Part shown: one piece after another, positions 10,604 to 56,399 of the stretch
Layout: each line of letters opens with the position of its first letter
How positions within the stretch are numbered: the stretch's first letter is position 1
Origin: an uncultured Erysipelotrichaceae bacterium
GTDB taxonomy: Bacteria; Bacillota_I; Bacilli_A; RFN20; CAG-826
Assembly: GCA_900314585.1 (NCBI GenBank)
Contig: OMVV01000004.1
Span: 34,166-98,165 of the forward strand
Reading direction: 5' to 3'
DNA length: 64,000 nucleotides
Translations under genes and position numbers: made by a program
The notes under the pieces: model-generated
What the model saw: only the letters and a program-made list of their open reading frames with translations
The model's database searches: none
What the model was told of the DNA's origin: nothing

Positions 10604-10613
10604 AAATAAGCGA

Positions 10614-12373: not shown

Positions 12374-13470
12374 TGAATTACATAATCTTCGGAGGAACTT
12401 TTGACCCAATTCACAATGGGCATCTTCGAATTGCAAACTTTGCTGCGAAGAAATTTTCTGCGAAGGTTATTTTTGTTCCAAATAAATCTCCACGTTGGAA
12501 AGAACCTTTAACCGATATCTCTCATCGATTAAATATGCTTAAGATTGCTTTAAAAGAAGCAACTTTTGAATATGAAATCTCTGATTATGAGATAAATAAG
12601 AGTGATGATATCAATTATTCAATTGATACAGTTAAATATTTTAAAGATAAATATCCAAACGATAAACTCTACTTCCTTATCGGCGCTGATCAAGTAAATC
12701 AATTTGATAAATGGAAAGATGCGGTGGAGCTATCTAAACTTTCAACAGTTATTTATTCAGATCGTCCTGGCTTTGAACTTAACAAAGAGATAATCCAAAA
12801 GTTTAATCTCGTACCTTTAGGATATCTAGAATCTGGAGAAGTTTCTTCTAGTGATATCCGCGAGCTTAAATCTTTAGATTTAAGTGAGGAAGTTCTTCGT
12901 TATATTGAAGATAACAAGCTTTATTTTGTGGGTAGAATCGCTAAATACGTCACTCCAAAAAGGCTTAATCACTCAATCCAAGTTGCTAGACTTGCTTATG
13001 AAGTCGCGAAAGTTAATAAGCTAGAAAATCCAGAACGATACTATATCGCAGCAATCCTTCATGATGTTGGTAAAACCAGCAAATGCGACGCAGAAGATGC
13101 GGTGGAGTTCATGAAAAAGAATTATCCAGAGTATGTTGATTTACCAAAATTCGCATATCACCAATTTATTGGTGAATATATCGCTAAAAAAGACTTTAAC
13201 ATCAAAGACGAAGAAATACTTGAGGCCATTAAATTCCATTGCACCGGTAACTCAGATATGAAGAAAATCGGGATGGTGGTATATGCCTCAGATAAAATCG
13301 AACCAACAAGAGAATTTGATTCAACCTGGTTAATCAATTCCTGTTTGAATGATTGGTATCAAGGTTTCATCGACACTTTAGTGGATAATAAAAAGTATCT
13401 TTTAGGCCATGCCAAAGACATTACAAATAAATTAACCGATGCTTGTTTTAAGCAATACATAGGAGACTGA
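12373..13470 (+). CDS. nadD: Nicotinate-nucleotide adenylyltransferase fused to YqeK HD-domain hydrolase
   Basis: N-terminal half carries GGTFDPIHNGH (the HxGH nucleotidyltransferase motif). C-terminal half carries H...HD(V)GK...H HD-domain motifs typical of YqeK. One uninterrupted 365-codon frame. Confidence 0.85.
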   Translation: MNYIIFGGTFDPIHNGHLRIANFAAKKFSAKVIFVPNKSPRWKEPLTDISHRLNMLKIALKEATFEYEISDYEINKSDDINYSIDTVKYFKDKYPNDKLYFLIGADQVNQFDKWKDAVELSKLSTVIYSDRPGFELNKEIIQKFNLVPLGYLESGEVSSSDIRELKSLDLSEEVLRYIEDNKLYFVGRIAKYVTPKRLNHSIQVARLAYEVAKVNKLENPERYYIAAILHDVGKTSKCDAEDAVEFMKKNYPEYVDLPKFAYHQFIGEYIAKKDFNIKDEEILEAIKFHCTGNSDMKKIGMVVYASDKIEPTREFDSTWLINSCLNDWYQGFIDTLVDNKKYLLGHAKDITNKLTDACFKQYIGD

Positions 13471-13471
13471 T

Positions 13472-13789
13472 ATGGATAAAGTTGTTACACTCGCCAAGAA
13501 ATTATTAAACGATCACAAGGCAGAAGATGTCGTTGTTATCGATGTTAAAGAAAGAACGCCGTTTGCGGAATATTATGTCCTTGCTTCAGCGAGCAATATT
13601 CGTCAACTTAATGCCTTAACTGAGATCATTGAAGATGAATTTTCCAAGAAGAAAATAAGCATCAATCATATCGAAGGAACTCCTGAATCTGGATGGATGC
13701 TAATTGATGCTCATCATGTCATCATAAACATCTTCTCAAAAGAGGAAAGAGAACGTATTAGCTTGGAAAAAATCCTCGCTAAAAACTAA
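13472..13789 (+). CDS. rsfS: Ribosome silencing factor RsfS
   Basis: ~105 aa, AEYYVLASASN...GW.LIDAHHVIINIF pattern. Operon position after yqeK. Confidence 0.85.
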   Translation: MDKVVTLAKKLLNDHKAEDVVVIDVKERTPFAEYYVLASASNIRQLNALTEIIEDEFSKKKISINHIEGTPESGWMLIDAHHVIINIFSKEERERISLEKILAKN

Positions 13790-13810
13790 GATCAAATCAT
13801 TAAAGAAAAT

Positions 13811-13845
13811 AAGTGTGTCAACATTGGGCACACTTTTATTTTTAC
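13811..13845 (+). terminator. Intrinsic terminator after rsfS operon
   Basis: AAGTGTG-11 nt-CACACTT followed by TTATTTTT. Confidence 0.7.
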
Positions 13846-13874
13846 ATTTTTGTGGAAATGGTCAAAAATATACA

Positions 13875-13902
13875 ACTTCGCATAATTGCTATTATGTTAA
13901 CC
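13875..13902. other. dif: dif-like XerC/XerD chromosome dimer resolution site
   Basis: ACTTCGCATAA-TTGCTA-TTATGTTAACC. Arms match E. coli dif (GGTGCGCATAA-TGTATA-TTATGTTAAAT) at 8/11 and 9/11. They match B. subtilis dif (ACTTCCTAGAA-TATATA-TTATGTAAACT) at 8/11 and 9/11. The site lies in a non-coding gap at the coding-strand switch. Confidence 0.7.
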
Positions 13903-14013
13903 AAATACTAGAAAAGCAAGATTTAATCGAAATAAAACAAGATAAAACAGCAAGAGACTTTTTCAAACCTTCTGTTAAAAGAGTGACTTACCCACATAAA
14001 TTTTGTTGATTAA

Positions 14014-14033
14014 ATCTACTAATTATCTACTAA
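14014..14033. repeat. Two phased CTACTAA direct repeats (spacing 11 bp)
   Basis: ATCTACTAATTATCTACTAA. Same unit and orientation as the arrays at 5160 and 22183. About 110 bp from the dif-like site. Confidence 0.75.
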
Positions 14034-14646: not shown

Positions 14647-15414
14647 AGCTTGATTTTTCTTTATTTTTTCGTTTATGAAGAACGCAGCCAATGTTATTAG
14701 AAGCATCAACACCACTGCGATTAATGAATAAGCGAATACAGGCGTCATATTGGTCGGATCATTTATCTGAGCGCCTTTAATGAGGCTTCCTATTCCGTTT
14801 CTGGTATAGCCAGTGATGACTTCAGCCATGATTTCAATTTTAAATGAGAGTGAAAATGCAGAAATCATCCCTACTACGATAAACGGCATGCTGAGTGGAA
14901 GTTGAATCTTAAACAACTTTTTGAATTTATTTGCTCCATCGACGTTTGCAGAATCAATAATTTCTTGATCACTGCTTTTTAAGCCGCCAACAATCGCCTC
15001 ATAAAGGATTGGAGTGGCAATTAATATGACAACGAGCATTGGAGCGTACTGCGCCCCTATCACTACAATGAACAAAAATACTAATGCTGCCGTTGGAATA
15101 GCTTTGAAGAATGTCATTAATGGAGTGAAGAATTGATACATCTTTTCACTGTCATTAACGATCATTCCTAAAGCAAAGGCGATAACAAACGCGATTAAAA
15201 ATCCTATCAACATTCTTAATAAAGAATGACCTAGGCAAATATATGTATAACCTTCCTTTAAATATTCCCTTGCTAAGACGATTGTATCGATTGGAGAGGG
15301 AACAATCGTTGAATTAACACATAAAGAAATAATTAACCATAAAAGGAAAACAAAAATCGTTCCATAAAGGAAGATCATGTACTTATTAGTAATAAATTTC
15401 TTCACTTGTTGCAT
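14638..15414 (-). CDS. ABC transporter permease (NitT/TauT-like, BPD_transp_1)
   Basis: Six TM segments and an EAA-like loop (DSANVDGANKFKKLFKIQLP). I prefer the ATG at 15414 over the TTG at 15423. It overlaps the upstream SBP gene by 29 nt, so the start is uncertain. Confidence 0.8.
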   Translation of the reverse strand: MQQVKKFITNKYMIFLYGTIFVFLLWLIISLCVNSTIVPSPIDTIVLAREYLKEGYTYICLGHSLLRMLIGFLIAFVIAFALGMIVNDSEKMYQFFTPLMTFFKAIPTAALVFLFIVVIGAQYAPMLVVILIATPILYEAIVGGLKSSDQEIIDSANVDGANKFKKLFKIQLPLSMPFIVVGMISAFSLSFKIEIMAEVITGYTRNGIGSLIKGAQINDPTNMTPVFAYSLIAVVLMLLITLAAFFINEKIKKNQAKK

Positions 15415-16294
15415 CAATTCCAAAGTTTGACAAGAATTTGTCGATTCCTTCCTTGTTATCTTTTGCGCGTTTGAATCCTAAACCCATGCGGTTACCGTTT
15501 TTTGTAACAGCAGCCGCAACAGCTGGTTCAACACCATAGAATTCAGATGCTTTTTCTTTTAGAGCCATCTTCGAGGCAATGACATCTGGGTTAGCGATGC
15601 CATCATTAATATCTTTTTCAAGTGAACTTAAGAAAGCATTCGCATCAACACCGTTTTTAATAAAAACGGACGCTTGAAATATTTCTGAACCTACTTTCTC
15701 TTTATATAAGGTTTGAATGTTCGCGTATTCAGAGACGTTTTCTTTCTTACTCTTAACATTTGTAAAAGCTGGATCCGCAATTAAGACGTAATCAACAGGG
15801 ACATTATCATGAACGATATCTTTGCCCGTTGTTAAGCATTGAGCAGCAAATTGGTTTGTTCCAACATAATGAATTCCGGTGTTTAAAGCATTTCCATAAA
15901 TAGCATGGAACATTAAATCAGGGAATCCCCCTTCATTAAAGACAACGATATAATCATCGGCGTCCATTACTCCATCATCATCGTTACCAGTAGCTGCAAC
16001 GAAAAGATTACCAAAGGTAATAGTTGCGGCAATCTTATAGCCAACACCCTTTTTGGTGATTGCGCTAATTCCAGCGTTTGTTGGCAAAATCACCACATCT
16101 TTTTGACCTTGGACCATCATTGGGATGATGTTAGAAGCATCGCTATTAGTTTCAAAGTTTGGATCTTCTGAATAGCTATAAAACGCTATCGCAGGAGCGC
16201 CAACTGGTGAAACAATCGTTAAATTGTGTTCGTACTTATTTGCACAGCCACCTAAACCAATGAGAGTGGCTAATAACAACATTTTTGTTTTCAT
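15386..16294 (-). CDS. ABC transporter substrate-binding lipoprotein (NMT1/PhnD-like periplasmic-binding fold)
   Basis: Signal peptide with lipobox LGG-C. ~280-aa alpha/beta binding-protein-like body. Directly upstream of the permease. Confidence 0.7.
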   Translation of the reverse strand: MKTKMLLLATLIGLGGCANKYEHNLTIVSPVGAPAIAFYSYSEDPNFETNSDASNIIPMMVQGQKDVVILPTNAGISAITKKGVGYKIAATITFGNLFVAATGNDDDGVMDADDYIVVFNEGGFPDLMFHAIYGNALNTGIHYVGTNQFAAQCLTTGKDIVHDNVPVDYVLIADPAFTNVKSKKENVSEYANIQTLYKEKVGSEIFQASVFIKNGVDANAFLSSLEKDINDGIANPDVIASKMALKEKASEFYGVEPAVAAAVTKNGNRMGLGFKRAKDNKEGIDKFLSNFGIDATSEEIYY

Positions 16295-29470: not shown

Positions 29471-31669
29471 TTAGTGAGTGACACGAGAGATTTCATAGAC
29501 GCCTTTAAGGCCACTGATCGCGTTGATTGTGTCTTGTAAAGCATCAGCTCCAGAGACATAAATCGTAACAGCAATCGTTGTAGTTAAAGTTTGGGGATGC
29601 AAAGTCGCATTTAAAGCTGTAACAGACACTTTCTTTTGGGCGAAAACTTGCATCATTTCAACGACTAAATTTGGTCGGTCATGACATTCGATTTTTAAAT
29701 CGGCTGGATAAGTTGATTCTTTAAGATTATCTTTCCAGAATACTTCGATTAGTCGCTTCTTTTCGTTAGCGATATTTGGACAATCTTTGCGGTGAATTGT
29801 CACCCCTTTACCTTTGGTAATATAGCCAACAATTTCATCTCCTGGGATTGGGGTGCAGCAATTGCCTAAAGTGATCGCAATCTTACCTGCTCCTGGAATA
29901 TAAATTGGTGAATCATCATGATCTTTAGTGACTTTTTCGATGTTGAGATATTCTTGAACTGGTCGCTTTAAATTGAGGAAATCAATGATCGCTCCTGGGG
30001 TTGGGTTTTTCGCAGCGACTTTGATATATAACTCATCAACATTGTCGACGTTATAGTTATTCAAAACTGAGTGAGATGAGATAAGTTTTTCCATCTCGCT
30101 TTCGGAGATATTGTATGACTTGAACGCTTCGACACAACTATTTTTGCCTTTGGCAATTATGTCATCTTTCATAAATTCAGCGTTTTTCTTAGCTAAAAAT
30201 TTACGAATATGGTTTTTAGCAAAGTTAGTCGTAACGATATTGAGCCAATCTTTATTTGGTCCCGGGGAAGATTTCGAAGTTTTGATTTCAACGATATCAC
30301 CGGTCTTTAAAACAGTGTTTAGAGGCACCATAACGTTGTTGACGATTGCCCCTACTGCTTTTTCAGCGACACCAGTGTGAATCTTATAAGCGAAATCAAG
30401 GGGAGTTGCTCCGCTAGGAAGATTGATTACTTTACCCATAGGTGTAAAGACATAGACATTTGCTTCAAAAATATCATGGGAAAGAGACGACATATATTCT
30501 TTCGCATCGACATCTTTGTTTTCGGAAATATTGACGAAATCGCGGAGCCAATAAAGTTTCTCTTCGATTTCCTTTTGTTCTTTCTTTGGATCGTACTTAG
30601 AACCTTCTTTATATCGCCAATGGGCTGCGATACCGCTTTCGGCGGTTTCATCCATTTCCTTCGTTCTAATTTGGACTTCAAAGGTATTGCCATTTCCATC
30701 CAAGATGCAAGTATGTAAAGATTGGTACATATTTGGTTTTGGAGTGGCGATATAGTCTTTGAATCTTCCTAACACTGGAGTGTAAGTCGCGTGGATTATA
30801 CCAAGGATTTCATAACAGTTAAGTTCGGTTTCAGTGATGATACGTAACGCCAAAATATCAAAGATTTCTTCGAACTTATGGTTCTTTTTATAAATTTTTC
30901 GATAAATCGAATAGATTGATTTAACTCTTGCTTTAAGTTCAAAAGGAATGCCGCGTTTAAATAAGTCATCAGCAATTTTCTTCGAGAATGTTTCAAGTGA
31001 CTTCAATGCATTTTTAACTTTGGAATCAACTTGACGGACGATTTCTTCATATTTTTCAGGCTCAAGATATTTAAGCGATAAATCTTCAAGCTCTGATTTA
31101 AGGGAATTCATACCAAGTCTATGAGCGATTGGAACGAACACTTCGAGGGTTTCTCGTGCAAGCACGAGTTGTCTATCTCTTGATAAGGAAGACAAAGTTC
31201 TCATATTGTGAAGTCTATCTGCAAGTTTAATGACGATGACACGGACGTCTTTTGCCATTCCAAGGAAGATTTTGCGATGATCTTCGTAAACGAATTCTTC
31301 TTCACTTCGATGGGAAAGTTTAAGACGTTGAATCTTTGTTAATGAATCAACAAGGTTCATGACGTCATCGCCAAATTCTTTTTTGATTTGCTCTAATGTA
31401 ACGTCTGTATCTTCAACTGTGTCATGAAGTAAACCGGCGATCAACGTGGATGGTCCGCATTGAAGAGTTGTTAATATATAACAAACCTCGATTAAATGAT
31501 GGATATAAGGTTCACCAGATTTTCTGGTTTGACCTTCATGAGCTTTACATGCGAAAAGATAAGCCTTTTCAATACTTTGACGCGATTTTGTATCGTGTAT
31601 ATAGACAAAGTATTGTTCTTTGACTTCATCAAAGGTATGTAACTTGTATTGATCCTTTGTCTCGCTCAT
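29471..31669 (-). CDS. relA: Bifunctional (p)ppGpp synthetase/hydrolase (long RSH)
   Basis: HD hydrolase domain (HDTVEDT), synthetase domain (YQSLHT..EVQIRT), TGS and ACT-like C-terminus. I prefer the ATG at 31669 over the TTG at 31675. Confidence 0.9.
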   Translation of the reverse strand: MSETKDQYKLHTFDEVKEQYFVYIHDTKSRQSIEKAYLFACKAHEGQTRKSGEPYIHHLIEVCYILTTLQCGPSTLIAGLLHDTVEDTDVTLEQIKKEFGDDVMNLVDSLTKIQRLKLSHRSEEEFVYEDHRKIFLGMAKDVRVIVIKLADRLHNMRTLSSLSRDRQLVLARETLEVFVPIAHRLGMNSLKSELEDLSLKYLEPEKYEEIVRQVDSKVKNALKSLETFSKKIADDLFKRGIPFELKARVKSIYSIYRKIYKKNHKFEEIFDILALRIITETELNCYEILGIIHATYTPVLGRFKDYIATPKPNMYQSLHTCILDGNGNTFEVQIRTKEMDETAESGIAAHWRYKEGSKYDPKKEQKEIEEKLYWLRDFVNISENKDVDAKEYMSSLSHDIFEANVYVFTPMGKVINLPSGATPLDFAYKIHTGVAEKAVGAIVNNVMVPLNTVLKTGDIVEIKTSKSSPGPNKDWLNIVTTNFAKNHIRKFLAKKNAEFMKDDIIAKGKNSCVEAFKSYNISESEMEKLISSHSVLNNYNVDNVDELYIKVAAKNPTPGAIIDFLNLKRPVQEYLNIEKVTKDHDDSPIYIPGAGKIAITLGNCCTPIPGDEIVGYITKGKGVTIHRKDCPNIANEKKRLIEVFWKDNLKESTYPADLKIECHDRPNLVVEMMQVFAQKKVSVTALNATLHPQTLTTTIAVTIYVSGADALQDTINAISGLKGVYEISRVTH

Positions 31670-31678
31670 ATACAATTC

Positions 31679-32419
31679 TTATTCTTCAATTGGTTCCCAA
31701 AGGTGAGAAATATAGTTATCGAAGAAATAGTTGTTGGTACAAGCTGAGAATGATTCATACTTTTGATATGTCGCTAAAGCGACAGGATTTGTACCATGGG
31801 TGTTTGTCCATTCAGTGACATTTGTGCAAATATCAAATGAATTCACGCCATCAGAATAAGTTTTTAAGAAGGTCCAACCTTTGTAATCAGACGAGAGGTT
31901 TTCCACTGCTCTTAATGAGGTATATTTACCATCTTGGTAAACTTCGAGATAACAACCATCGTAAGTTGTGTATTTGCCACCACCAATGATTTGAATATCG
32001 AAGTGAGTATCATCGGTATATGTACATCTAACTTTAACCGCATCAGCAACTTGATCAGATGTTGTTAAATAATATGGATATTCACCCTTTTCATCACGAT
32101 GATGATCACCATTCATGAAGATGTTCTTATCAAGTTCTGCTTGATAAATACCATAAATATAGTCCTTACCGTCGACTGGCGCAGTCATCACGCGGCGATA
32201 GCCTTGATATGTTTCTGGACCTGGAGAAGGTGGCTCGATTGGTGAAACTGTTGGATCGGTTGGAACGGTTGGGGTTCCAGTGTGTGTAGACGCTGTTGTT
32301 CCGCTGGACTTTTGTGATGTTTCTGTCGTGGATTTTTTCTTTTTAGATCCACCGCCAGAAGATGTACAGCTAACAAGAGCAACTGCCATTAAGGGAATAA
32401 AGATTAAGCTTTTTTTCAT
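31679..32419 (-). CDS. Lipoprotein of unknown function (island gene 4; 'module B' type)
   Basis: MKKSLIFIPLMAVALVS-C lipobox, then TSSGGGSKKKKS and a Thr/Pro-rich linker, then a ~175-aa Tyr/Cys-rich body. Its stop lies 9 nt before the relA ATG. Confidence 0.8.
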   Translation of the reverse strand: MKKSLIFIPLMAVALVSCTSSGGGSKKKKSTTETSQKSSGTTASTHTGTPTVPTDPTVSPIEPPSPGPETYQGYRRVMTAPVDGKDYIYGIYQAELDKNIFMNGDHHRDEKGEYPYYLTTSDQVADAVKVRCTYTDDTHFDIQIIGGGKYTTYDGCYLEVYQDGKYTSLRAVENLSSDYKGWTFLKTYSDGVNSFDICTNVTEWTNTHGTNPVALATYQKYESFSACTNNYFFDNYISHLWEPIEE

Positions 32420-32443
32420 AATAAAACTTCCTTTTACACAACA

Positions 32444-32472
32444 ATTATAAAAACAAATACCTTTTATTTCAA
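32444..32472 (-). promoter_or_regulatory. Sigma-70-type promoter for lipoprotein gene 31679-32419 (and probably relA)
   Basis: On the minus strand TTGAAA-17 nt-TATAAT, followed by an AAAAGGAAG RBS before the ATG. Confidence 0.6.
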
Positions 32473-32473
32473 A

Positions 32474-32500
32474 TAAAAAAGGTAAGGAGTAATCCCTACC
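32474..32500 (-). terminator. Intrinsic terminator after lipoprotein gene 32520-33236
   Basis: On the minus strand GGTAGGG-attac-TCCTTACC followed by TTTTTT. Confidence 0.65.
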
Positions 32501-32519
32501 TTCTTAATAAATGAGGTTA

Positions 32520-33236
32520 TTAAGCCTTGAAATGAAGTGACACAATGTAGACTGCGAAGATATTAGTATTACTGATAACAAAGTCGCCTTCTGCAGTTGC
32601 ATTGACTGGGATTTCAACGGTGTGAAGATTCCAGTTAGCATCATAGTCAGAAACAACTGATGTCGAAGTGCCTGGAACAGTAATTGCGCCATTACCAAAG
32701 GTAAGTGTACCAATTTGGGTGTCAGTCCATCCATGGCTTTTCTCGATTAAAATTTTTGCTTCGATTGAACCAACAGCTTTAATGCTAGAAATGGTCATAA
32801 CACCTGGATCTCTGCTCTTTGAACCACTGAATTGGAAAGCATACGCTTTTTCAGAACCAGTATGGCTATCACCGGCTGGGTTATCAGTAATCAAAACATC
32901 GTGGAAATTGATGTTTGTACCTTCAACAGCATGATCGCCTTCATAAGCTGCATAGCCTTTTGAATTTGGATCATACATTGATTCAGCTTCAAGTAACCAT
33001 GGAACATCATGAGCTTGTCCTGGAGTAGGAGCGACAGAACTTGATGATGATGATGATTTACTTCCGCTTGAACCAGAGGATCCGCTTGATTGGGAACCAC
33101 TACTCTTACTTGGATCAGAAGTCACACTTGTGGTTTGGCCAGAAGATGATTTCTTCTTTTTAGAACCACCACCAGTTGAAGTACAAGCTGTAACTGCTAA
33201 AGCAAACAAAGGTAATAGGATTAGTCCTTTTTTCAT
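32520..33236 (-). CDS. Lipoprotein of unknown function (island gene 3; 'module A' type)
   Basis: MKKGLILLPLFALAVTA-C lipobox, TSTGGGSKKKKS, a long Ser/Gly linker, then a ~160-aa beta-rich body ending VYIVSLHF. Paralog of 33370-34077. Confidence 0.8.
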   Translation of the reverse strand: MKKGLILLPLFALAVTACTSTGGGSKKKKSSSGQTTSVTSDPSKSSGSQSSGSSGSSGSKSSSSSSSVAPTPGQAHDVPWLLEAESMYDPNSKGYAAYEGDHAVEGTNINFHDVLITDNPAGDSHTGSEKAYAFQFSGSKSRDPGVMTISSIKAVGSIEAKILIEKSHGWTDTQIGTLTFGNGAITVPGTSTSVVSDYDANWNLHTVEIPVNATAEGDFVISNTNIFAVYIVSLHFKA

Positions 33237-33369
33237 TTATTAATCTCCTTTCCTATCTAGGAAATTAAATGAAATCGTACGTTTTTCACTTAAATTCCGT
33301 AACTATATTATATATAAATAAAAATGTTATTGATACTAAATAACTAAAAAATGAAATTGAAATAAGTAT

Positions 33370-34077
33370 TTATTCGAAGTGAATAGATTGGATATACATT
33401 GAAAACTTGCTCTCATTTAAAAGGGTGAGAGTAGTCGCTTCAGATGCGTTGATCGAATATTCAAAATCGTAGACGTTGAATTCTTCGTTTACAGCGGATG
33501 GAAATGATGTGAGTAAAGTTGGCGCTTCAACGCGGTCATCTTTCCCTAAATAAATAGTTGGAGGATAGTCCATGTGATAGCTATTTTTACTATGAGTAAC
33601 TAGTTCTAGAACAAGTTTTGTAGGTTTTATTGAAGAGATTTGAAGCTGTCCTCCATCAGGCCACGATTCGTGGTTTTTCTTACACAAATGGATGATCTGA
33701 AAACCTTTATATTGAATCAGACTACCATTGATATTAACGGCGATTTCTTTGACTGCTCGCATGCCATAAGCGTAGACATTCGTTCCATCGATGTCATAAG
33801 TTTTATGATAGGCAGCATAGCCAAGCGATTCGGAAGGATCTTTGAAATTTTCGTAGTCAAGATCCCACGGCAAAGAATGTTCTGCACCTTGTTCAACGAC
33901 ATCCGCTCTTGAAGGGCCAGTAGTTGACGAGGTTGTTTTACTTGATGAAGATGCAGAAGTTATCTCAGTGTTTTCGCTAGTTTGTCCACTACTATTTTTC
34001 TTCTTTGAAGAACCTTGTCCAGAACAACTTGCAACACTAAGGGTGACTAACAATAAAATTAACCAACTTTTTTTCAT
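33370..34077 (-). CDS. Lipoprotein of unknown function (island gene 2; 'module A' type)
   Basis: MKKSWLILLLVTLSVAS-C lipobox, SGQGSSKKKNS, Ser/Thr linker, body ending MYIQSIHF. Its start overlaps the stop of the upstream gene (TAATG). Confidence 0.8.
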   Translation of the reverse strand: MKKSWLILLLVTLSVASCSGQGSSKKKNSSGQTSENTEITSASSSSKTTSSTTGPSRADVVEQGAEHSLPWDLDYENFKDPSESLGYAAYHKTYDIDGTNVYAYGMRAVKEIAVNINGSLIQYKGFQIIHLCKKNHESWPDGGQLQISSIKPTKLVLELVTHSKNSYHMDYPPTIYLGKDDRVEAPTLLTSFPSAVNEEFNVYDFEYSINASEATTLTLLNESKFSMYIQSIHFE

Positions 34078-36941
34078 TATAAATTCACCTTGTATACTTG
34101 AATAGGAAGTGATTGATTTCCTTGCTTATAGGTATAGAAACGTTTTCCTCCAGTATTGTAATAAACATACTTTTGGTAAGTATTGTCATTGTAGCCTATT
34201 TGAATGCTGTCATAATCATCTTTCTCTTGAATAGTAATAAGCTTTTGCTTCTTATCTGCCGTTTTCTTAAATGATGGAGCATCTTTATTCACGGTCAATT
34301 TTAATTCGCTTGATGTGCCAACTGTGCTGGCAAGATAAATTGCTATTGGATTGATTTTGGTACCATCACTAAGTTCAACTTGTTCATCAAGTTTTTTGAT
34401 GTAGAAAGCTGCTCTTTCAACTTTAGCATCATAAATGGTTAGAGTATCGCCGATATTAGTGCTGTGTTGATAATCGAAATAATTTCCTTCTCGTTCATTA
34501 GTCCTGGTGTTCCAAATTTCATTATTTTCATTGCTTAAAGCACCATTCCAAACTCTTGTCTTGGTTGTGTCGTCACGATCGATACAGGTGATAATGTAAT
34601 ATCCTTCCGCATCAAAATCGGCATTTGATTTGACCTTGGTGTATGTCTTCGCGACGTATGGTTTAACGTGAATTGTGTTCGCGTTAACTTCTAATTCGTT
34701 TTCAAGTTCACCAATTGAAGTAGTCACACTAAGTGTGAAACCGTTATTCATCATGTCCATTGTTGCTTCATTTGGGAAGTCAAAATTAAACAATGGAGTT
34801 GCTTTAACTTTGTTATCTTCTTGAATGTAGATATCGAATTCAAGAGCTTCAGCGTATGACAAAGTAAGTGATGTTGAATCATCATAAGTAATAACGACTT
34901 GAACACCAGTGTAATCCATCAAATCATGTTCATCATAATCAGTTTTTGAAAGTGAATTACAAACGATTTGAACACTTTGAATTGCTTTAACACTAACTTG
35001 ATCAGCTGGAATTTCTAATGTTCCAACTTTGTTATCAAGATCACATTTAACTGAAACAGAGAAACCTTCAGTTTGCATCGACTTGCTCACCACAAGTGGT
35101 GAATATGATGCATAATCATATCTTGGAGTCTTTTTGTTCGAATTATTTGGATCTAGATATGTTTGTGATGAAAGTTGAGAGAATTTAAATGTTTCACTGC
35201 TTTCATCATCATATGTGATTTTTGCATTGAATTCGGAATAGTCAATCTTTTCACCTTCGGTGAGACTTGGATTATAAAGTGTTTCACCATCTTTATAAAA
35301 TACTGCAATATCGGCTACTTGTTTGACGATCAAATCATTCTTTTTGAATGCAAAAGTTGAACTTTTACCAGTTAAATTGTGTTTAAGTGTAATTGTATAA
35401 CCGTTTTGTAATGCTTTGATGGCGTATTCATGAAGATTTGTAGCGGAAAATGTTTCTTTGAATTGAGCGGTTTTATAATCTTTTAAGTCATATGTTAAAA
35501 CCGGTTCTTCAGCGTCGGCCATTAGATTAATCTTAATGCCAGTATAATCAATCTCATCATAGATGAGGTATTCGTGTTTTTCTGTTAAACTACCAGTGAT
35601 TTGAATACTCTTAAGCTCTGGATAAACAACAATTGGATACGAAGTTTTTTGAGTTTGAATAACACTACCTTTTTTGTAAGTATAGGATAGATTTACATCT
35701 TGATTTGCGGCTTCATTAATGAATTTGCCATCTTTGCCTAAATTATCAGTTGTTATGTTGAGTAAATGAGTTACATCAACCTTTGTTTCAGGTGATTCTG
35801 AGAAAAAGGCGTTAACGACTAAACCATTAGTATTAAATGCGGTGCCTTTAAAGAAGGCAGTTGGTTGTTCTGATGTTTCAGAATCGACTTCAATCTTTTG
35901 AAGATCACCACGATAATATTCGATGATGATTGCTTTTAGATAGATTGCTCCAGAATTAACTTTTGTTTCTGGATCATAGTAAGTTGGAGAGAAATGAATC
36001 TTGATATCTCCTGTTAAGACTTTATCGTTAAATTCTTCACCTGTAACTGTATCAAGAGGTTGATCGGTTGAATATTTTGGAGTGGCGACATCATTAACAT
36101 ACTTTGTATTTCCTACGGAAATAGTAATATGAGATGTACCTTCATCACCGCTCTTACCATAACCTGAACCGGTATTATAATGAGCGGCAGAAGATGAACA
36201 TAAAACTGATATTTTACGAATATATCTTGTATTTTCGGTTGAAAACTCGACATTGCCATAAGGGTCTGCTTTCGAGCCAAATGTCAAGGATTGACCACCG
36301 CCCACATTCTTTGTTGGAGTGTCGAACTTAAAGTTCCACTCCATTCCGGAAAGTGTAACGGTTCCTTCGCTTCTTGCTCGACCATCATCACCATTAAATT
36401 TATTAGCATCATTCTTATTATCTCCGGTCTTATCGATTTGCCAGAAATATGTATAGTCTGAATTATCGATAACTGTGATCGTAACTTCGTCAGTTAATGA
36501 ACGGTTATATTGTGAACGAGCTGTTAAGGTTGACGTGCCTTCTTTTAACGCCGTTAAAACACATTGACTAGTTTTATCTGGGTTTGGCTCAACTAGTAAT
36601 ACTTTTTCGTTGGATGATTTCCAATCAATGCCTTTTTCATCATCGCCACCACCGCCTTTAAATGTAACTGAGAAATCAAGGGTGGTTTTGTTTTGCATGA
36701 AAAAGTCTTTGGTGTATTTCATCGAAATACCCGTAATGTGCTTATCTGCAACCTCGCCTTCTCCTGGAGTACCTTCATGATCATCAATTGGTGGAGCCGG
36801 ATTAACAGGAGTAACCTCAGATGAATCAGGTTGACTCGATGAAGAAGATTTTTTCTTAGTAGACTTTGAGCCGGAATTACAACCAGCAAGAATAACTGTA
36901 GACATCGCTAGCAGTGACATAATAATCTTTTTTGTTTTCAT
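34077..36941 (-). CDS. Large multidomain surface lipoprotein (Big_2-like + module A + ~4 Ig-like repeats + module B)
   Basis: MKTKKIIMSLLAMSTVILAG-C lipobox, NSGSKSTKKKSSSSS linker. Big_2-like segment (ITGISM...LTALKEGTSTLTA...VTITV). Four ~100-aa repeats share an (I/L)xx(I/V)x(I/V)...DYTG(I/V) pattern. GGAGGA RBS and an upstream TATAAT. Confidence 0.85.
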   Translation of the reverse strand: MKTKKIIMSLLAMSTVILAGCNSGSKSTKKKSSSSSQPDSSEVTPVNPAPPIDDHEGTPGEGEVADKHITGISMKYTKDFFMQNKTTLDFSVTFKGGGGDDEKGIDWKSSNEKVLLVEPNPDKTSQCVLTALKEGTSTLTARSQYNRSLTDEVTITVIDNSDYTYFWQIDKTGDNKNDANKFNGDDGRARSEGTVTLSGMEWNFKFDTPTKNVGGGQSLTFGSKADPYGNVEFSTENTRYIRKISVLCSSSAAHYNTGSGYGKSGDEGTSHITISVGNTKYVNDVATPKYSTDQPLDTVTGEEFNDKVLTGDIKIHFSPTYYDPETKVNSGAIYLKAIIIEYYRGDLQKIEVDSETSEQPTAFFKGTAFNTNGLVVNAFFSESPETKVDVTHLLNITTDNLGKDGKFINEAANQDVNLSYTYKKGSVIQTQKTSYPIVVYPELKSIQITGSLTEKHEYLIYDEIDYTGIKINLMADAEEPVLTYDLKDYKTAQFKETFSATNLHEYAIKALQNGYTITLKHNLTGKSSTFAFKKNDLIVKQVADIAVFYKDGETLYNPSLTEGEKIDYSEFNAKITYDDESSETFKFSQLSSQTYLDPNNSNKKTPRYDYASYSPLVVSKSMQTEGFSVSVKCDLDNKVGTLEIPADQVSVKAIQSVQIVCNSLSKTDYDEHDLMDYTGVQVVITYDDSTSLTLSYAEALEFDIYIQEDNKVKATPLFNFDFPNEATMDMMNNGFTLSVTTSIGELENELEVNANTIHVKPYVAKTYTKVKSNADFDAEGYYIITCIDRDDTTKTRVWNGALSNENNEIWNTRTNEREGNYFDYQHSTNIGDTLTIYDAKVERAAFYIKKLDEQVELSDGTKINPIAIYLASTVGTSSELKLTVNKDAPSFKKTADKKQKLITIQEKDDYDSIQIGYNDNTYQKYVYYNTGGKRFYTYKQGNQSLPIQVYKVNL

Positions 36942-36993: not shown

Positions 36994-37024
36994 TAAAAAA
37001 ATAAATGCACACCTGAAGCGCGCA
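36994..37024 (-). terminator. Intrinsic terminator after recJ
   Basis: On the minus strand UGCGCGC-uucag-GUGUGCA (includes G-U pairs) followed by TTTATTTTTTT. Confidence 0.55.
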
Positions 37025-37049
37025 TATACATAAAAATAGGATTAGAATT

Positions 37050-38647: not shown

Positions 38648-41392
38648 TTAATCGTTAATACCGATATAGATTCTTTCTTCTGGTTCAGAAGTTTTTGGTT
38701 GTTCGTGTAGTTTGATACGTGATTTCTTTTCTTTCTTAACGAATTTTGGAAGGTGAATCTTGGAGAATAATTTATCAATTAAATTACCAAGTGGACCCAT
38801 GATTGTTAAGATAGAGACTAAACCAACGATATCGCCAACAAGGACAGCTGCGTACATATATGCAGTTGAGGCTAAACCAAATCCAAAGTAGTTGATTGTG
38901 ATATAAATCGCGATGATGGATAAGGTAATAATACCAGTCGCTGAAAGCGATAAAGCTCTAACCATAATGGAGCGACGTTTTTCTGGAGTAAGTTCTTCCT
39001 TGTTTTCTTTGAAAAGTTCTTTCTCTTTCGCGAGATAGAATAGAGATAACAACATAGTTGTTACTGCCACCATTGGCATCAAGATTGCACTTAAGGCAGT
39101 TGTACCAATTCTTGTTAAAGAAAGTAAACCATAAGCAATCGCAGTTGAACCACCACTAACAACTAAAGCAGCAATGCCGCGTGAGACTTTAAATCTAATT
39201 GCGAAGTATAGCGCAACGCCAGCAATTGCAACACCAGTTGCTAAAGCAATATAACCTTGGTTTGGTGTGGTAACTGTTTCGTGTGATTTAAGAAGCGAGA
39301 CGGAAATCTTGTCTTCGTTAGTGATATTTTCAAAATGCATCACTAAGTTTTGAACTGCTTCTTCGAAGCCTTCATAAGCGACTTCATAAGTAACACCATC
39401 ATCGAAGGTATATGAAACTTCTTTTGGAGAGATGACATCTTTTAAGTCGACGGAGAAGACATGATATGGTTCAGCTTCTTCAACTAAACGATCGGAATCA
39501 AATTTGGTAACTTTTTGATAGTTAACAGCATCTTTTTCGTCGTAGTTAAGTTTGTTGCCATCAATTAAGATGTTCTTTAGAACATAGGTTTTGAATGAAT
39601 CTTCATCATTGATGATTTTATCATCAGCGTTAACAGTGACATAAACGACTGAATAATCTTTTGTAGCGTTTTCCACGTTAAGTGGTGAGCCTTTAAGTAC
39701 ACAAAAGGTGACAATACCTGCAACTGAGGCAACAAGTAAGAGCGAGAAAAGAATTGAAGTTAATTTGGAGTGTTTTGTGAAGTTCACATTATCATATGCT
39801 CCAACTGGTTCAGCTTTCTTTTCATCCATGACGTTTGGAACATCCTTTGGATCAATTGCGAATAATTGTGTTTTGTTTTGGAACGCAGTTGTGTTCGCAA
39901 GTAGATACATCATTATCTTGAAGATAATAAGGTTCATAGCCAAGGTGAATAACGCACCGAAGAATAAGACAACGCCCATTGGTTTAAGTGCGACTCCACC
40001 GAGGACATAAAGCATTAAGCCAGCAAAGGCTAAGATGACGGAAGCATCGATTGTGAGCAAGTTGGACTTACGTGAAGCTTCTTGATTTGCTTTACGAATT
40101 GAACGGCCTTTTAAGATTTCACCTTTGAATTTATTAAGATAATAAACTGAACCAAATAATGAGCCAACCGCTAGGATTGCACCACCAATAACTGCCGGGA
40201 TATTGAATAAGGCACCCATTGAGGTGAAGACAACGTATGTTAAGAAGATTGTCGCAACTGTGTTAGAAATGACGGCAATCGCGCTTAAACGATAGAAAAC
40301 AATGAGTAATAAGGAAATGATTGCTAAAGCAATAAGAGTCGAAATAAGAGTCGTCGACATTGCGATGTTAACATCGTTACCTAAGACTAAGAGGTTTTCG
40401 TTTGTTGCCTTGATTTGGTTGGAATTATATGTAATACCAGATTGAGCTTCGTTAACGTAAAGAGGTTGAACGTCGAGTTCATATTTGGAAGCATTGAACA
40501 TGTTCTTTAAATAAAGAGCCTTTAAGTTAGCAAACTTAAGGTTATTTAAATCGTAGTTACCTTCTTCGTTAGCAGTACCACAAAGGTATTGGATTTCAGT
40601 GTGTTCTTCTTTAGATTCTTCATACCAGAAATGTTTGCTGGAGAATTCCATTAAGATTTTGCTAGCGACATGTGGATCTTTGCTAGCTTGTTCATATGTA
40701 TCAGCATCATCCCAGTCATGGACTAAGAAAACGTTTGGTGTTTCTGGTTGTTCTTCTTCACCTTCACCTTCACCTTCGGTGCCTTCTTCAGCGCCTTCAG
40801 CGTTCAACCTTCTAGAGAGGGCTTCACCATTATCGGATGAGGCTTCTTCTTCACCACCTTCATCTTCACTTTCATCGACAGTTTTAAGGAATTGTTCGAC
40901 TTGAGTCTTATCAGAAACTGGAATAATGACGTAAGGAATTGTGTCTTGGACTTTGGTAATGTATGCGACGGAATTATCAAAGACATTTGTGACGAATTGT
41001 TCTTCTTTTTCACCAATTAAAGAGAAATTACCACCGGAGAAATTAAGATATTTGACAATATAGTCAAATTCACTTTGATCTGCCGCAAAAGAAACTTCGA
41101 TCGCATATTTACGGTCTTTGTTACCTTCACTCATGGTTTGGTCAGCTTGATATTTAACTGAATAATCCTCAACGTTAAAGTCATCTAAACGTTTACGGAA
41201 TTCTTCAACAACCTTGTTAACACTGGTTTCATCAGCATCTTTATCTTCGCTGCTATCAACAGTGTAAACAACTTCGTATGAGTTGGTGAATTCTCGGCCA
41301 GCATTCATTTTAGTGAACACTGGAGTAGCAGTAACACCGACTGCTAATAAGATGGATAGTGCCATCAGGATATAAGCTATAAATCGTCGCAT
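38648..41392 (-). CDS. secDF: Fused protein translocase subunit SecDF
   Basis: 914 aa with two blocks of 6 TM helices, each preceded by a large extracytoplasmic domain. Bacillus-type SecDF fusion. Contains an acidic low-complexity insert. Confidence 0.9.
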   Translation of the reverse strand: MRRFIAYILMALSILLAVGVTATPVFTKMNAGREFTNSYEVVYTVDSSEDKDADETSVNKVVEEFRKRLDDFNVEDYSVKYQADQTMSEGNKDRKYAIEVSFAADQSEFDYIVKYLNFSGGNFSLIGEKEEQFVTNVFDNSVAYITKVQDTIPYVIIPVSDKTQVEQFLKTVDESEDEGGEEEASSDNGEALSRRLNAEGAEEGTEGEGEGEEEQPETPNVFLVHDWDDADTYEQASKDPHVASKILMEFSSKHFWYEESKEEHTEIQYLCGTANEEGNYDLNNLKFANLKALYLKNMFNASKYELDVQPLYVNEAQSGITYNSNQIKATNENLLVLGNDVNIAMSTTLISTLIALAIISLLLIVFYRLSAIAVISNTVATIFLTYVVFTSMGALFNIPAVIGGAILAVGSLFGSVYYLNKFKGEILKGRSIRKANQEASRKSNLLTIDASVILAFAGLMLYVLGGVALKPMGVVLFFGALFTLAMNLIIFKIMMYLLANTTAFQNKTQLFAIDPKDVPNVMDEKKAEPVGAYDNVNFTKHSKLTSILFSLLLVASVAGIVTFCVLKGSPLNVENATKDYSVVYVTVNADDKIINDEDSFKTYVLKNILIDGNKLNYDEKDAVNYQKVTKFDSDRLVEEAEPYHVFSVDLKDVISPKEVSYTFDDGVTYEVAYEGFEEAVQNLVMHFENITNEDKISVSLLKSHETVTTPNQGYIALATGVAIAGVALYFAIRFKVSRGIAALVVSGGSTAIAYGLLSLTRIGTTALSAILMPMVAVTTMLLSLFYLAKEKELFKENKEELTPEKRRSIMVRALSLSATGIITLSIIAIYITINYFGFGLASTAYMYAAVLVGDIVGLVSILTIMGPLGNLIDKLFSKIHLPKFVKKEKKSRIKLHEQPKTSEPEERIYIGIND

Positions 41393-51741: not shown

Positions 51742-52734
51742 ATGAAAAAACTAAATCTACTTGCTTTATCAGCAATGGCGATGTCTGTTGGTGCCTTATC
51801 AGGCTGTTCGAAAGCTGATTACACCATTGGTGTACTTCTTCCAGTTAGACATGAAGCTCTCCAACTTGCTGAAAAAGGATTCGTTGAAGCTTTGAAAGAA
51901 GCCGGCCTTGTTGAAGGCAAAGACTTCGCGATCAAAGAAAAGAATGCTGATGGTGATGAAGCTGCATTAAATTCCTTAGCTAAAGATCTTGTCTCTTCTT
52001 GTGACATGACTCTTGGTACAGGTACTGGTGCTTCTCAATCACTTCAATCAGCCGCAAAAGATGGCGGTTCAGTTAAACCAATCTTATTCACCGCTGTCAC
52101 TGATCCAGAGGGCGCAAAACTTGTCGACAATGTCGATCATAGATCAGCAAATATCACTGGTGCATCCGATGCTCAACCGGTTGCTGAACAGATCGCTTTG
52201 ATCAAGGATATCATTCCAGAAGTCGATAAGATTGGTGTTATCTATTCCCAAAACGAACAAAATAGCGTTGTTCAAAAAGACCAAGTTAAGGCTATTGGCC
52301 TTATGCTCGGTATCGAAGTCGTTGAAAAAGGTGTTAGCGAAGTCAGCGAAATTTCACCAGCTGCCGAAGCTTTAGCAGCTACTTCAGGACTTGATGCAAT
52401 CTACGTTCCAACCGATAACAAGATTGCCGCTAATATGAATGCTATTAACCAAGCTTGTAATTCAAATCACGTTTTAGCAATGTGTGGCGAATTCGGTGAA
52501 GTTGAAACTGGCGGACATATTTCCTTCTCATTCGACTATGAAATGTTAGGAAAAGAAACTGGTAAGCTTGCTTACGAAATCATTAAAAATGGTAAAACAG
52601 CTGCTGAACTTCCAGTTCAATTCATGACAAAAACTAACTGTGAAATTCGTTATTCCAGCAAAAACTTAGCAGCTTCTGGTATTGAATTACCTGAATCTGT
52701 CAAAAATCGTGCTAAAGATATTAGCCTTAAATAA
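51742..52734 (+). CDS. ABC transporter substrate-binding lipoprotein (COG2984 / ABC_sub_bind family, TrpX-like)
   Basis: Lipobox LSG-C, then IGVLLPVRHEALQLAEKGFVEALKEAG...FTAVTDPEGAKLV, typical of this family. GGAG RBS. Confidence 0.85.
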   Translation: MKKLNLLALSAMAMSVGALSGCSKADYTIGVLLPVRHEALQLAEKGFVEALKEAGLVEGKDFAIKEKNADGDEAALNSLAKDLVSSCDMTLGTGTGASQSLQSAAKDGGSVKPILFTAVTDPEGAKLVDNVDHRSANITGASDAQPVAEQIALIKDIIPEVDKIGVIYSQNEQNSVVQKDQVKAIGLMLGIEVVEKGVSEVSEISPAAEALAATSGLDAIYVPTDNKIAANMNAINQACNSNHVLAMCGEFGEVETGGHISFSFDYEMLGKETGKLAYEIIKNGKTAAELPVQFMTKTNCEIRYSSKNLAASGIELPESVKNRAKDISLK

Positions 52735-54825: not shown

Positions 54826-55950
54826 ATCAATTCGTTCATTATCGCGGTAAACTTCGTCAATTGTTCCACTACCAATCATTAAACCGTCCTTATTATAGAA
54901 GACAGCCTCTTGACCAGGCGTTACCGCTTTAAAATAGTCGTAAGTTACAATGATTTCGTTATCTTTTTTATCAATTACGGCCGGATGATCTGGTTGACGA
55001 TATCTAAATTTAACCCCTACTTTCTGAGGGAATTTTTCGTCTTTATTAATAAAATTAAGTTTACGAACAATGCATTTATTGGACATTAAATACTTTTGGG
55101 TATCACCTCTAGTGACGTAAAGAATATTCTTTTTAGCATCTTTTTTAACGATGAACCAACCAGAAGCAGTTTCGCCAGAAATACCGCCGATACCTAAACC
55201 CTTATGTTGACCAATTGTGTAATAGTAAACACCTTTATGTGTGCCAATGATTTTGCCAGTATCAATATCTATGATATTGCCTTTTTGAGCAGGTATGTAA
55301 TTTTGTAAGAATTCTTTGAAATTACGTTCACCGATGAAACACACTCCAGTTGAGTCTTTCTTATCCATTACAGATTCAAGATTAAGTTCATGAGCAATCT
55401 TACGAACTTCATCTTTTTTGATATCACCGAGTGGGAATAAACACGCTTTAATTTGTTCTTCATTGATTTGTGACAAGAAATACGTTTGATCTTTTGATGT
55501 ATCCGCACATTTAGAAAGATAAAAATGTCCGCAATATTCCACTCTTTTTGTATAATGGCCCATTGCAATCATTTCAAATCCATTTTTCTTGGCAAAATCT
55601 AAAAATGCATCGAATTTAATAAATTTATTGCATAAAATATCTGGATTTGGGGTTCTTCCACATTCATACTCTGATAAGAAGAATGAGAAAACGTGATCCC
55701 AATATTCCTTGATAAAATCCACTCTTAATAAAGGAATACCAAGTTTTTCAGCAACTTTAATTGCGTCTTGATAATCTTTTTCTTGGGGACAGCGATCATC
55801 ATTAATGGTTGGATTACCTAAATAATCACCATTTGCCATCGCATCCCAGTTACGCATAAAACAGCCGCTAACTTCATAACCTTGCTTTTTAAGCAAATAA
55901 GCAGCAACTGCGCTATCAACCCCACCACTTAATCCAACTAATACTTTCAT
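54820..55950 (-). CDS. mnmA: tRNA-specific 2-thiouridylase MnmA
   Basis: PP-loop GLSGGVDSAV and catalytic Cys residues (the C..KF region and the VCFIGE region). Confidence 0.95.
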   Translation of the reverse strand: MKVLVGLSGGVDSAVAAYLLKKQGYEVSGCFMRNWDAMANGDYLGNPTINDDRCPQEKDYQDAIKVAEKLGIPLLRVDFIKEYWDHVFSFFLSEYECGRTPNPDILCNKFIKFDAFLDFAKKNGFEMIAMGHYTKRVEYCGHFYLSKCADTSKDQTYFLSQINEEQIKACLFPLGDIKKDEVRKIAHELNLESVMDKKDSTGVCFIGERNFKEFLQNYIPAQKGNIIDIDTGKIIGTHKGVYYYTIGQHKGLGIGGISGETASGWFIVKKDAKKNILYVTRGDTQKYLMSNKCIVRKLNFINKDEKFPQKVGVKFRYRQPDHPAVIDKKDNEIIVTYDYFKAVTPGQEAVFYNKDGLMIGSGTIDEVYRDNERIDK

Positions 55951-56399
55951 GAGAATAATTCCTCTGAATCTAAAAGGGTGGTAAATGGACCTTTATTAAT
56001 AAGGTTAATACGCATATCAGCACCAAAGATGCCCTTTTCAACGTGATAGCCTTCATTTGTTAGGCATTTGTTGAAATATTCATATAGTTCATTGGCCTTT
56101 TTAGGCTCCATAGCGTTAACAAAGCTTGGTCTACGACCATCTTTAAGTGAAGCGTATAATGTGAACTGAGAAATTGATAATATTTCCCCATTAACGTCTT
56201 TCAAAGAAAGATTGGTTTTGCCGTTTTCATCATCAAAGACTCGCATAGTGATAAGTTTTTTCGCCATCTTCTCTACTATTTCTTCGTTATCGCTGTGACA
56301 AAAACCAACCAACACAACAAAACCGTGGGATATTTCTCCCACGATTTTATTATTTACTTCACAAGAAGCTTTTAATGAATTTTGAACAACAAGTCTCAT
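55947..56399 (-). CDS. dtd: D-aminoacyl-tRNA deacylase
   Basis: MRLVVQ N-terminus, SQFTLYA, GPFT motifs. ~150 aa. Confidence 0.9.
   Translation of the reverse strand: MRLVVQNSLKASCEVNNKIVGEISHGFVVLVGFCHSDNEEIVEKMAKKLITMRVFDDENGKTNLSLKDVNGEILSISQFTLYASLKDGRRPSFVNAMEPKKANELYEYFNKCLTNEGYHVEKGIFGADMRINLINKGPFTTLLDSEELFS

Follow-up and report, generated by a model that had tools for sequence, protein, structure and literature searches.

A fixed recJ-relA locus of predicted, strain-variable surface lipoproteins in an uncultured Erysipelotrichaceae bacterium

What is the role of four lipoprotein genes that stand between recJ and relA in the genome of an uncultured Erysipelotrichaceae bacterium? We addressed this question in a stretch of 64,000 nucleotides (nt) of contig OMVV01000004.1 (assembly GCA_900314585.1, positions 34,166 to 98,165 of the forward strand), hereafter called the window. 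All four open reading frames (ORFs) lie on the minus strand. G1 (34077..36941; 954 aa) comes first after recJ, as it invariably does in relatives. It is followed by G2 (33370..34077; 235 aa), a tether plus a domain of a type shared with G3, whose start overlaps the G1 stop by 1 base, by G3 (32520..33236; 238 aa), a divergent paralog of G2, and by G4 (31679..32419; 246 aa), the last gene before relA. A previous reading of this DNA (the original prediction) gave these coordinates, which the ORF list confirms exactly. That reading regarded the genes as an inserted island that could encode a surface adhesin or nutrient-capture set, or else be a reservoir for surface variation.

The evidence described below leads us to lean, with modest confidence, towards a fixed-position, strain-hypervariable locus of lipid-anchored surface binding proteins, which would be lectin- or adhesin-like, non-enzymatic and diversified by recombination between strains.

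Strain variation and fixed position of the locus

We compared the window with four contigs that were treated as conspecific, their flanking genes (RecJ, RelA, SecDF, HisS and RuvB, where present) being 98-99% identical to those of the window. The identity of G1 to the window allele was 84%, 75%, 70% and 60%, that of G2 was 79-92% and that of G3 72-83%. G4 was present on two of the four contigs, with 95% identity. In the flanking genes, nonsynonymous divergence (dN) was 0.003-0.012 and synonymous divergence (dS) 0.11-0.20, with dN/dS ratios of 0.02-0.08. The corresponding values were 0.10-0.16, 0.56-0.82 and 0.18-0.20 for G1, 0.09-0.11, 0.17-0.22 and 0.49-0.56 for G3, and 0.03-0.13, 0.25-0.83 and 0.09-0.15 for G2 and G4. 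Nonsynonymous divergence among G1 alleles was thus 10-30 times that of the flanks, and synonymous divergence was raised too. The ratios of G2 and G4 between strains point to purifying selection, and these are therefore functional genes.

To follow the variation along G1, its domains must be introduced. The AlphaFold model of G1 is all-beta and multidomain, with a mean predicted local distance difference test score (pLDDT) of 83.7. A signal peptide with lipobox (residues 1-21; 36879..36941, minus strand, as are all segments of G1) was read from the sequence, and its C21 is invariant in the family alignment. It is followed by the lysine tract STKKKSSSS and a Ser/Pro-rich disordered tether (residues 22-65; 36747..36878), pLDDT being below 50 over residues 1-64. 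The next domain is a Big_2-like immunoglobulin (Ig) domain (residues 66-160; 36462..36746), assigned from the family profile and from the ortholog in the related locus L005. Then come a beta-sandwich of about 12 modelled strands, called module A (residues 161-345; 35907..36461), four internal Ig-like repeats of about 100 aa each, modelled as beta-sandwich units (residues 346-764; 34650..35906), and a C-terminal, membrane-distal beta domain, module B (residues 765-954; 34080..34649). As modelled, G1 forms a rod made up of about seven domains of beta-sandwich or Ig-like type and ends in a distal beta domain.

Several searches bear on these assignments. The G1 family profile matched the Big_2-type region of a surface protein of phage SU10 (7z47; expectation value (E) 7.7e-4), and the equivalent domain of the L005 ortholog passed the Pfam model Big_2 (PF02368; 27.7 bits against a cutoff of 22.8). 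Window G1 itself gave no Big_2 hit in Pfam at E up to 1. The internal repeats matched one another in a self profile comparison (E 1e-20 to 1e-9), and the G1 version of locus L010 has two repeats fewer. Foldseek with the whole model returned generic Ig arrays only (among them the S-layer proteins SbsB, SbsC and Sap, an RTX adhesin and ICAM) at template modelling (TM) scores of 0.08-0.15, in a full-length search that does not resolve module A or module B. Module B had no sequence relative in the PDB. Module A is the best-conserved part of the family and is shared by every G1-type protein, even those of L003, L004, L005 and L007, which are shorter. Homologs of G1 form 34 clusters among 5.8 billion proteins, none of which is annotated.

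The divergence of G1 is distributed as a mosaic over these domains. Between the alleles of L012 and L014, identity was 98-100% in Big2, Ig1 and Ig2, and 65-70% in Ig4 and module B. The window and L015 were 98% identical in the linker and 45-46% identical in Ig4 and module B, while the window and L011 shared 96% in Ig4 and 67% in module B. Module B was the most variable domain in most comparisons, with 46-67% identity among conspecific alleles. Moreover, module A of the window was 76% identical to an allele of another species (RecJ at that locus being 78% identical), compared with 65-68% to three of the four conspecific alleles. In Ig2, Ig4 and module B, the most divergent conspecific allele was as far from the window as alleles of other genera. 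This pattern indicates recombination of domain-sized blocks, together with old or imported alleles.

We also looked for ways in which such variation could arise within one genome. No homopolymer run of at least 9 nt was found in the window, no direct, inverted or tandem DNA repeat of significance in the island, and no recombinase ORF between recJ and relA. Slipped-strand phase variation at the lysine tract was rejected, because the lysine codons mix AAA and AAG and the A runs in the tracts reach at most 5-7 nt. Recombination or inversion within the genome was rejected for want of repeats. The suggestion of a reservoir fed by recombination among the paralogs is therefore not supported as worded. 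Surface variation as such is large, and it exists between strains as mosaic alleles rather than through exchange among paralogs.

To examine the position of the cluster, 17 loci were gathered by RelA-based retrieval and by look-ups of G1 homologs. Each of the 15 related loci covering the whole interval, with RelA identities of 72-100%, had lipoprotein genes between recJ and relA. The G+C content of the island is 0.33-0.39, the same as in the window and flanks, and no flanking direct repeats, mobility genes or integrase were found at the island; tRNA genes were not scanned for. Judged from these loci, the interval is an old, lineage-wide slot with variable content and not a recent insertion, contrary to the idea of an inserted island. 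The slot is filled throughout the clade, and it is the gene content that varies.

The order of genes follows a pattern in the relatives, with a G1-type gene always first and a G4-type gene last in the nearer clade. At the position of G3, which was seen in this species only, other species have a lipoprotein of another family (F4). The encoded proteins measure 954-235-238-246 aa in the window, 937-237-218-225 aa in L001, 949-229-242-239 aa in L009, 707-447-587-186-257 aa in L010 and 761-210-570 aa in L005, with L007 similar to the last. In L010, the island also carries unrelated cargo (10206-14022), none of it with a Pfam hit. One of these proteins (447 aa) has a signal at its N-terminus and a transmembrane anchor at its C-terminus. 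The other two are lipoproteins of 587 aa and 186 aa, the latter of which resembles an oligonucleotide/oligosaccharide-binding (OB) fold by eye.

Two origins of the cluster were considered and rejected. A mobile island does not agree with a G+C content equal to that of the flanks, the lack of flanking repeats and a slot filled in all spanning relatives. As regards phages or prophages, no relative of G1 was found among IMG/VR viral contigs, and the matches of G4 in BFVD were weak trefoils only.

The small proteins and their relation to G1

Searches of Pfam, NCBIfam and PDB sequences with the four proteins, their family profiles and domain-only profiles recovered signal peptides and the Big_2-like stretch only. 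No enzyme, transporter or regulator family was detected in them. Both results agree with the original prediction, which had named Ig-like folds, as the G1 model also has, and had seen no characterised family and no enzyme, transporter or regulator.

In G4, a 60-aa tether is followed by a domain (residues 61-246; 31682-32239, minus strand) that AlphaFold models with 13 strands and pLDDT above 85. When this model was compared with the PDB by Foldseek, the 50 matches listed were beta-trefoils almost throughout (probability about 1.0, TM-target 0.5-0.6, E 2e-3 to 9e-2). Among them were Kunitz-STI inhibitors, HA33/HA17, the CysR domain of the mannose receptor, MIR domains and the Mitsuba lectin, at 6-16% identity. 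As a Ricin-B lectin or member of carbohydrate-binding module (CBM) family 13, G4 gave no Ricin_B_lectin hit in Pfam, and no QxW triplet pattern was visible in the family consensus; as a Kunitz-STI protein, it gave no Kunitz_legume hit in Pfam and 6-10% identity in structural alignments. On the model, G4 is thus a divergent beta-trefoil without a family-level signature. Its family comprises 15 clusters among 5.8 billion proteins and is unannotated. In L003, the locus of a more distant relative, a trefoil domain of the G4 type is fused to the C-terminus of a larger lipoprotein (383 aa; 7951-9102), which shows that island proteins with several domains also employ the trefoil as a module. The literature was searched for surface lipoproteins with a beta-trefoil in Firmicutes, and nothing relevant was found.

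G2 and G3 are homologous over their full length (27% identity, E 1e-12 to 1e-20). Their family counts 34 clusters among 5.8 billion proteins, all unannotated, and an exhaustive search of 1.84 billion representative proteins with the domain profile recovered 26 relatives only. They occur either as stand-alone lipoproteins or at the C-terminus of large proteins in which Big_2 or aBig_2 are the sole recognised domains. The domain also terminates two island lipoproteins, of 393 aa in L004 and of 570 aa in L005 (E 1.9e-6 for the C-terminus of the latter). Two remote relatives, P0093 (1282 aa) and P0094 (593 aa), combine aBig_2 with one or two domains of the G2/G3 type and with unrecognised domains, some of which resemble module A of G1 by eye. 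They could form a bridge to a wider superfamily.

We then considered whether the small genes repeat parts of G1. The original prediction had proposed a module A common to G2, G3 and, more distantly, residues 163-345 or so of G1, and a module B common to G4 and the C-terminus of G1. Neither BLAST nor a first round of profile-profile comparisons nor iterated hidden Markov model (HMM) searches connected G1 significantly with the small proteins. The profile-profile comparisons were made on alignments trimmed of signal peptides, which otherwise dominate the scores. The HMM searches were run over all island proteins, with no cross-recruitment between G1 and the small ones. Module A matched G2/G3 at E 0.29-0.5 with the initial profiles and at E 0.0047-0.0061 with an enlarged profile, full-length over 139 collinear columns, where most unrelated family pairs score E 0.1-0.5. 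Module B matched G4 at E 0.036-0.37, collinearly and in the region that had been proposed. When the independent AlphaFold models of G1 and G4 were compared in this register, the agreement of their strands was 0.66-0.73, compared with about 0.46 in shifted registers.

G2 and G3 thus share a domain, and its link to module A of G1 is only nominal. For module B, the profile score is nominal at best, and the agreement of strands and the trefoil fold of G4 speak indirectly in favour of the link; module B may share the modelled beta-trefoil fold of G4. Ancient fold-level relationships are plausible for both pairs. With identity below 20%, they would be at most that and not exchangeable modules. As far as the sequences tell, none of the small genes arose recently as a free-standing copy of a segment of G1, and the description of them as stand-alone parts of the giant gene does not hold as worded.

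Leaders, regulatory signals and neighbouring genes

The N-termini of all four proteins have a basic n-region, a hydrophobic h-region and a lipobox of the form [LVI][ASTVI][GAS]C, namely ILAG-C21 in G1, VAS-C18 in G2, VTA-C18 in G3 and LVS-C18 in G4. The lipobox cysteine is invariant across all three family alignments (G1, G2/G3 and G4). By this criterion, the four are bacterial lipoproteins (Lgt/Lsp substrates), lipidation itself being predicted. In each, the cysteine is followed by a Gly/Ser-Lys3-4-Ser tract and a Ser/Thr/Pro-rich stretch, which is disordered in the AlphaFold models of G1 (residues 1-64) and G4 (residues 1-60). The cysteine positions, the tract and the linker had all been described correctly before. 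The leader MKKSLILLPL..A..L.GC is common to nearly all island proteins at every locus, and the tract KKKKSS is found in most of them. Two further lipoproteins of the window (15386-16294 and 51742-52734) have no lysine tract, indicating that the tract is specific to the island and not general to the lipoproteins of this organism.

GGAGG-type ribosome-binding sites are visible for G1, G3 and G4. Upstream of G4 lies the best promoter-like site of the region, TTGAAA-17-TATAAT (32444..32472, minus strand), which matches the consensus at 11 of 12 positions. A hairpin with a T-run, read by eye in the intergenic sequence, precedes it (about 32475-32502, minus strand). After recJ, a terminator-like hairpin with a 9-bp stem and a T-run (37005..37025, minus strand) separates that gene from G1.

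At the other end of the cluster, the mechanical ORF for relA (29471-31675, minus strand; 734 aa) begins at a TTG, and the lengths called for its orthologs are 732-733 aa. Two codons further on, at 31669, an ATG lines up with the start called in L011 and L012, and this is probably the true start. Three same-species contigs have a 78-nt intergenic segment between G4 and relA (L011 6233-6319; L012 10665-10751; L013 8228-8314) that contains a terminator-like hairpin and a TTGAAA-17-TATAAT promoter. The segment is missing in the window (31669-31681), where the ATG of relA follows the stop of G4 after only about 9 nt, and relA would therefore depend on read-through from the G4 promoter. In L013, the island is identical to that of the window and the segment is kept; directly after it, near the contig end, the sequence diverges from relA, and no match to this tail was found in the window. 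The missing segment could reflect either true structural variation or an error of assembly.

The RecJ (DHH/DHHA1/RecJ_OB) and RelA domains of the flanking genes were confirmed, and HisS and AspS were assigned by conservation across loci and by the precomputed Pfam annotation of the L009 orthologs. The apt gene was found neither in the window nor in the loci of close relatives, and the distant Bacillota locus L008 has the order recJ-apt-relA; dtd lies at 55947-56399 (TIGR00256, 169.6 bits). These results support the earlier statement that the cluster occupies the slot of apt and that dtd is located elsewhere.

Between ruvB and recJ, the window encodes a 914-aa protein (38648-41392, minus strand) that has no Pfam hit, as is also the case for its orthologs in precomputed tables, and that carries an acidic low-complexity insert at about residues 175-215. 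Its best NCBIfam match was SecDF_plasm (E 8.5e-42; 143 bits, below the cutoff of 500), and it matched Thermus SecDF (3aqp) at E 6.6e-7. It is therefore a divergent fused SecDF. We take 'plasm' in the model name to denote the Mollicutes type, and on that reading the match hints at a lineage close to the Mollicutes. The host belongs to an uncultured low-G+C clade of Bacilli, Erysipelotrichaceae-like, and the names of the records suggest ruminant gut samples.

Other genes of the window, not linked to the island, include a type I pullulanase (60133-62208, minus strand; TIGR02104, 549 bits) and the TrpX-like ATP-binding cassette (ABC) substrate-binding lipoprotein at 51742-52734 (plus strand), which together hint at the use of starch or glycogen. 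The lipoprotein at 15386-16294 (minus strand), also outside the island, is a 302-aa orphan without a Pfam or NCBIfam match.

Alternative explanations and known systems

A role in surface binding or surface variation, as the original prediction offered, fits the predicted lipoproteins, the beta domains and the variable alleles. In the explanation that we favour, a strain-hypervariable locus of surface binding proteins, the lipidated proteins would sit on the outer face of the membrane. G1 would hold its variable tip, the main element of ligand recognition, tens of nanometres away from the cell, and G2, G3 and G4 would be short-tethered accessory binders, most plausibly lectin-like and directed at host, feed or microbial glycans. 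Being exposed, the proteins would be targets of phages, host antibodies or both, so that rare alleles would be favoured. Homologous recombination within the species, and probably also between related species, would keep reshuffling the blocks.

Several points weigh against this explanation. All pairwise dN/dS ratios were below 1, so positive selection is not demonstrated, and the raised dS could reflect the import of divergent DNA without selection. The species identity of the compared contigs rests on only one to four flanking genes. Beta-trefoil and beta-sandwich folds are functionally promiscuous, serving lectins, protease inhibitors, cytokines and toxins. G4 carries neither a ricin-type nor a Kunitz-type sequence signature, and the putative fold of G2 and G3 derives solely from their nominal similarity to module A. 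Exposure of the short-tethered proteins would depend on the thickness of the cell wall.

A more far-reaching form of the same explanation, which we hold only tentatively, makes the recJ-relA interval a dedicated, clade-wide surface-specificity locus of Mollicutes-like Bacilli with three undescribed domain families. Its blocks would be exchanged within and between species, and its alleles would be as old as the species or older (trans-species polymorphism). The trefoil-like tip of G1 and the free trefoil G4 would then be the lectin-type determinant of attachment and of targeting by phages and antibodies.

Among the rival explanations, two seem to us unlikely, and to the same degree. In the first, the proteins are a nutrient-capture set resembling SusE/SusF that keeps polysaccharide on the cell surface at the disposal of enzymes and transporters whose genes lie elsewhere. 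The architecture is similar, with a lipid anchor, one or more Ig-like domains and beta-sandwich or beta-trefoil binding domains, the type I pullulanase of the window lies about 23 kb away, and a gut or rumen habitat is inferred from the record names. However, no glycoside hydrolase, ABC or phosphotransferase system (PTS) transporter or regulator is found in or next to the cluster at any locus examined, and no CBM family was detected. Moreover, within-species identity as low as 60% and a distal domain that varies most are unexpected for binders of a fixed nutrient.

The second of these explanations takes the proteins for a passive coat or decoy, that is, an abundant and variable protective layer, S-layer-like or mycoplasma-lipoprotein-like, that evades phages and antibodies and has no specific ligand. 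Such a layer would fit the extreme allelic diversity and mosaicism, and SbsB, SbsC and Sap of S-layers are among the top Foldseek matches of G1, although at those TM scores the likeness is to generic Ig arrays. A conserved leader and lysine tract common to the island proteins recall the mycoplasma Vlp and Vsp lipoproteins, and SecDF is closest to SecDF_plasm, with its Mollicutes reading being our own interpretation. Yet the island has neither tandem-repeat mature regions nor an on/off switch. The rather good conservation of G2 and G4 under purifying selection suggests specific functions, and conserved aromatic, His and Gly positions in G4 and G2/G3 suggest a candidate binding site.

It is very improbable that G4, and possibly the tip of G1, is a trefoil protease inhibitor of the Kunitz/STI kind that shields surface proteins against proteases of the gut. 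In Foldseek, the inhibitors WCI, BbKI, BbCI and STI were indeed the top matches of G4 (E 2e-3 to 5e-2), but lectin- and MIR-type trefoils are their equals by TM score (HA33 0.58, Mitsuba 0.60), and beyond the low identity and the missing Pfam hit already described there is no identifiable reactive-site loop. The last possibility, that the small genes are donor cassettes recombining with G1 as the reservoir idea supposed, has the nominal full-length profile similarity of G2/G3 to module A and of G4 to module B in its favour and is largely refuted and scarcely credible, since the small genes share no DNA similarity with G1 (among themselves, only a lysine-tract match of about 35 nt at 66-71%) and less than 20% protein identity, are whole genes equipped with signal peptides and ribosome-binding sites and, in the case of G4, with a promoter, have no recombinase gene or inverted repeats beside them, and are not the match of the G1 mosaic blocks, which correspond to other G1 alleles.

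The carrier lineages are known only from metagenome-assembled genomes, and the locus provides the best candidates for their exposed surface. It contributes three orphan families and two folds predicted with confidence, namely a stalk of Ig domains and a beta-trefoil. With alleles 60-85% identical on a 98-99% identical background and shuffled by domain, it is a practical strain marker. Adhesion or lectin specificity, and targeting by phages or immunoglobulin A, could naturally be sought here, and the locus offers a case in which to test for balancing selection and for alleles shared across species among gut commensals.

The locus can be compared with several known systems. Mycoplasma Vlp, Vsp, Vpma and Vsa are clustered lipoproteins with a conserved leader and divergent mature parts that serve as strain-variable surface antigens. 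The island resembles these Mollicutes systems in its clustered lipoprotein genes, conserved leader, divergent mature parts, strong variation between strains and products that are dominant candidates for surface antigens, and in a host SecDF nearest to the 'plasm' model, which we read as Mollicutes. It differs in having no tandem-repeat mature regions, slippage tract, invertible promoter or site-specific recombinase. Its variation is allelic between strains through mosaic recombination rather than high-frequency clonal switching, and its mature parts are predicted to be folded beta domains, not repeats, with no sequence homology detected.

SusE and SusF of Bacteroides consist of a lipid anchor, an Ig-like domain and non-catalytic beta-sandwich binding domains. 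The island shares with them the succession of lipid anchor, Ig-like domain and apparently non-catalytic beta domains, and the clustering of genes in gut bacteria. It comes from another phylum, has no adjacent SusC/D, other transporter or glycoside hydrolases and no detectable homology to them, and its within-species divergence is far higher.

With the Ig-repeat adhesins and S-layer proteins (SbsB, SbsC, Sap and RTX proteins; Big_2 and Big_3), among which are its best structural matches, G1 shares a linear Ig-like array and a distinct distal domain. In contrast to them, it is predicted to be lipid-anchored instead of carrying an S-layer homology (SLH) domain, an LPXTG motif or a type I secretion signal; window G1 is below the Pfam thresholds, and TM scores of 0.08-0.15 mean a generic likeness only. 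With the beta-trefoils (ricin-B/CBM13, HA33/HA17, Kunitz-STI and MIR), G4 shares its modelled fold, as the tip of G1 possibly does. It is set apart from them by 6-16% identity, by the lack of a ricin- or Kunitz-type Pfam hit and by a lipoprotein tether that is unusual among the matches.

The pneumococcal genes for PspA and PspC are mosaic, hypervariable surface-protein genes at a fixed locus. Although the proteins and their anchoring are unrelated, and the island belongs to an uncultured commensal lineage, the two cases agree in a fixed position, conserved flanks, alleles made of recombined blocks and a distal part that varies most. Hypervariable surface-protein loci are well known, and the locus is not a new kind of biology. 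What is new here are the protein families, the lipoprotein-tethered trefoil predicted for G4, the fixed slot between recJ and relA and the domain-wise mosaic alleles in an uncultured lineage, all of them as variants of this known kind of locus.

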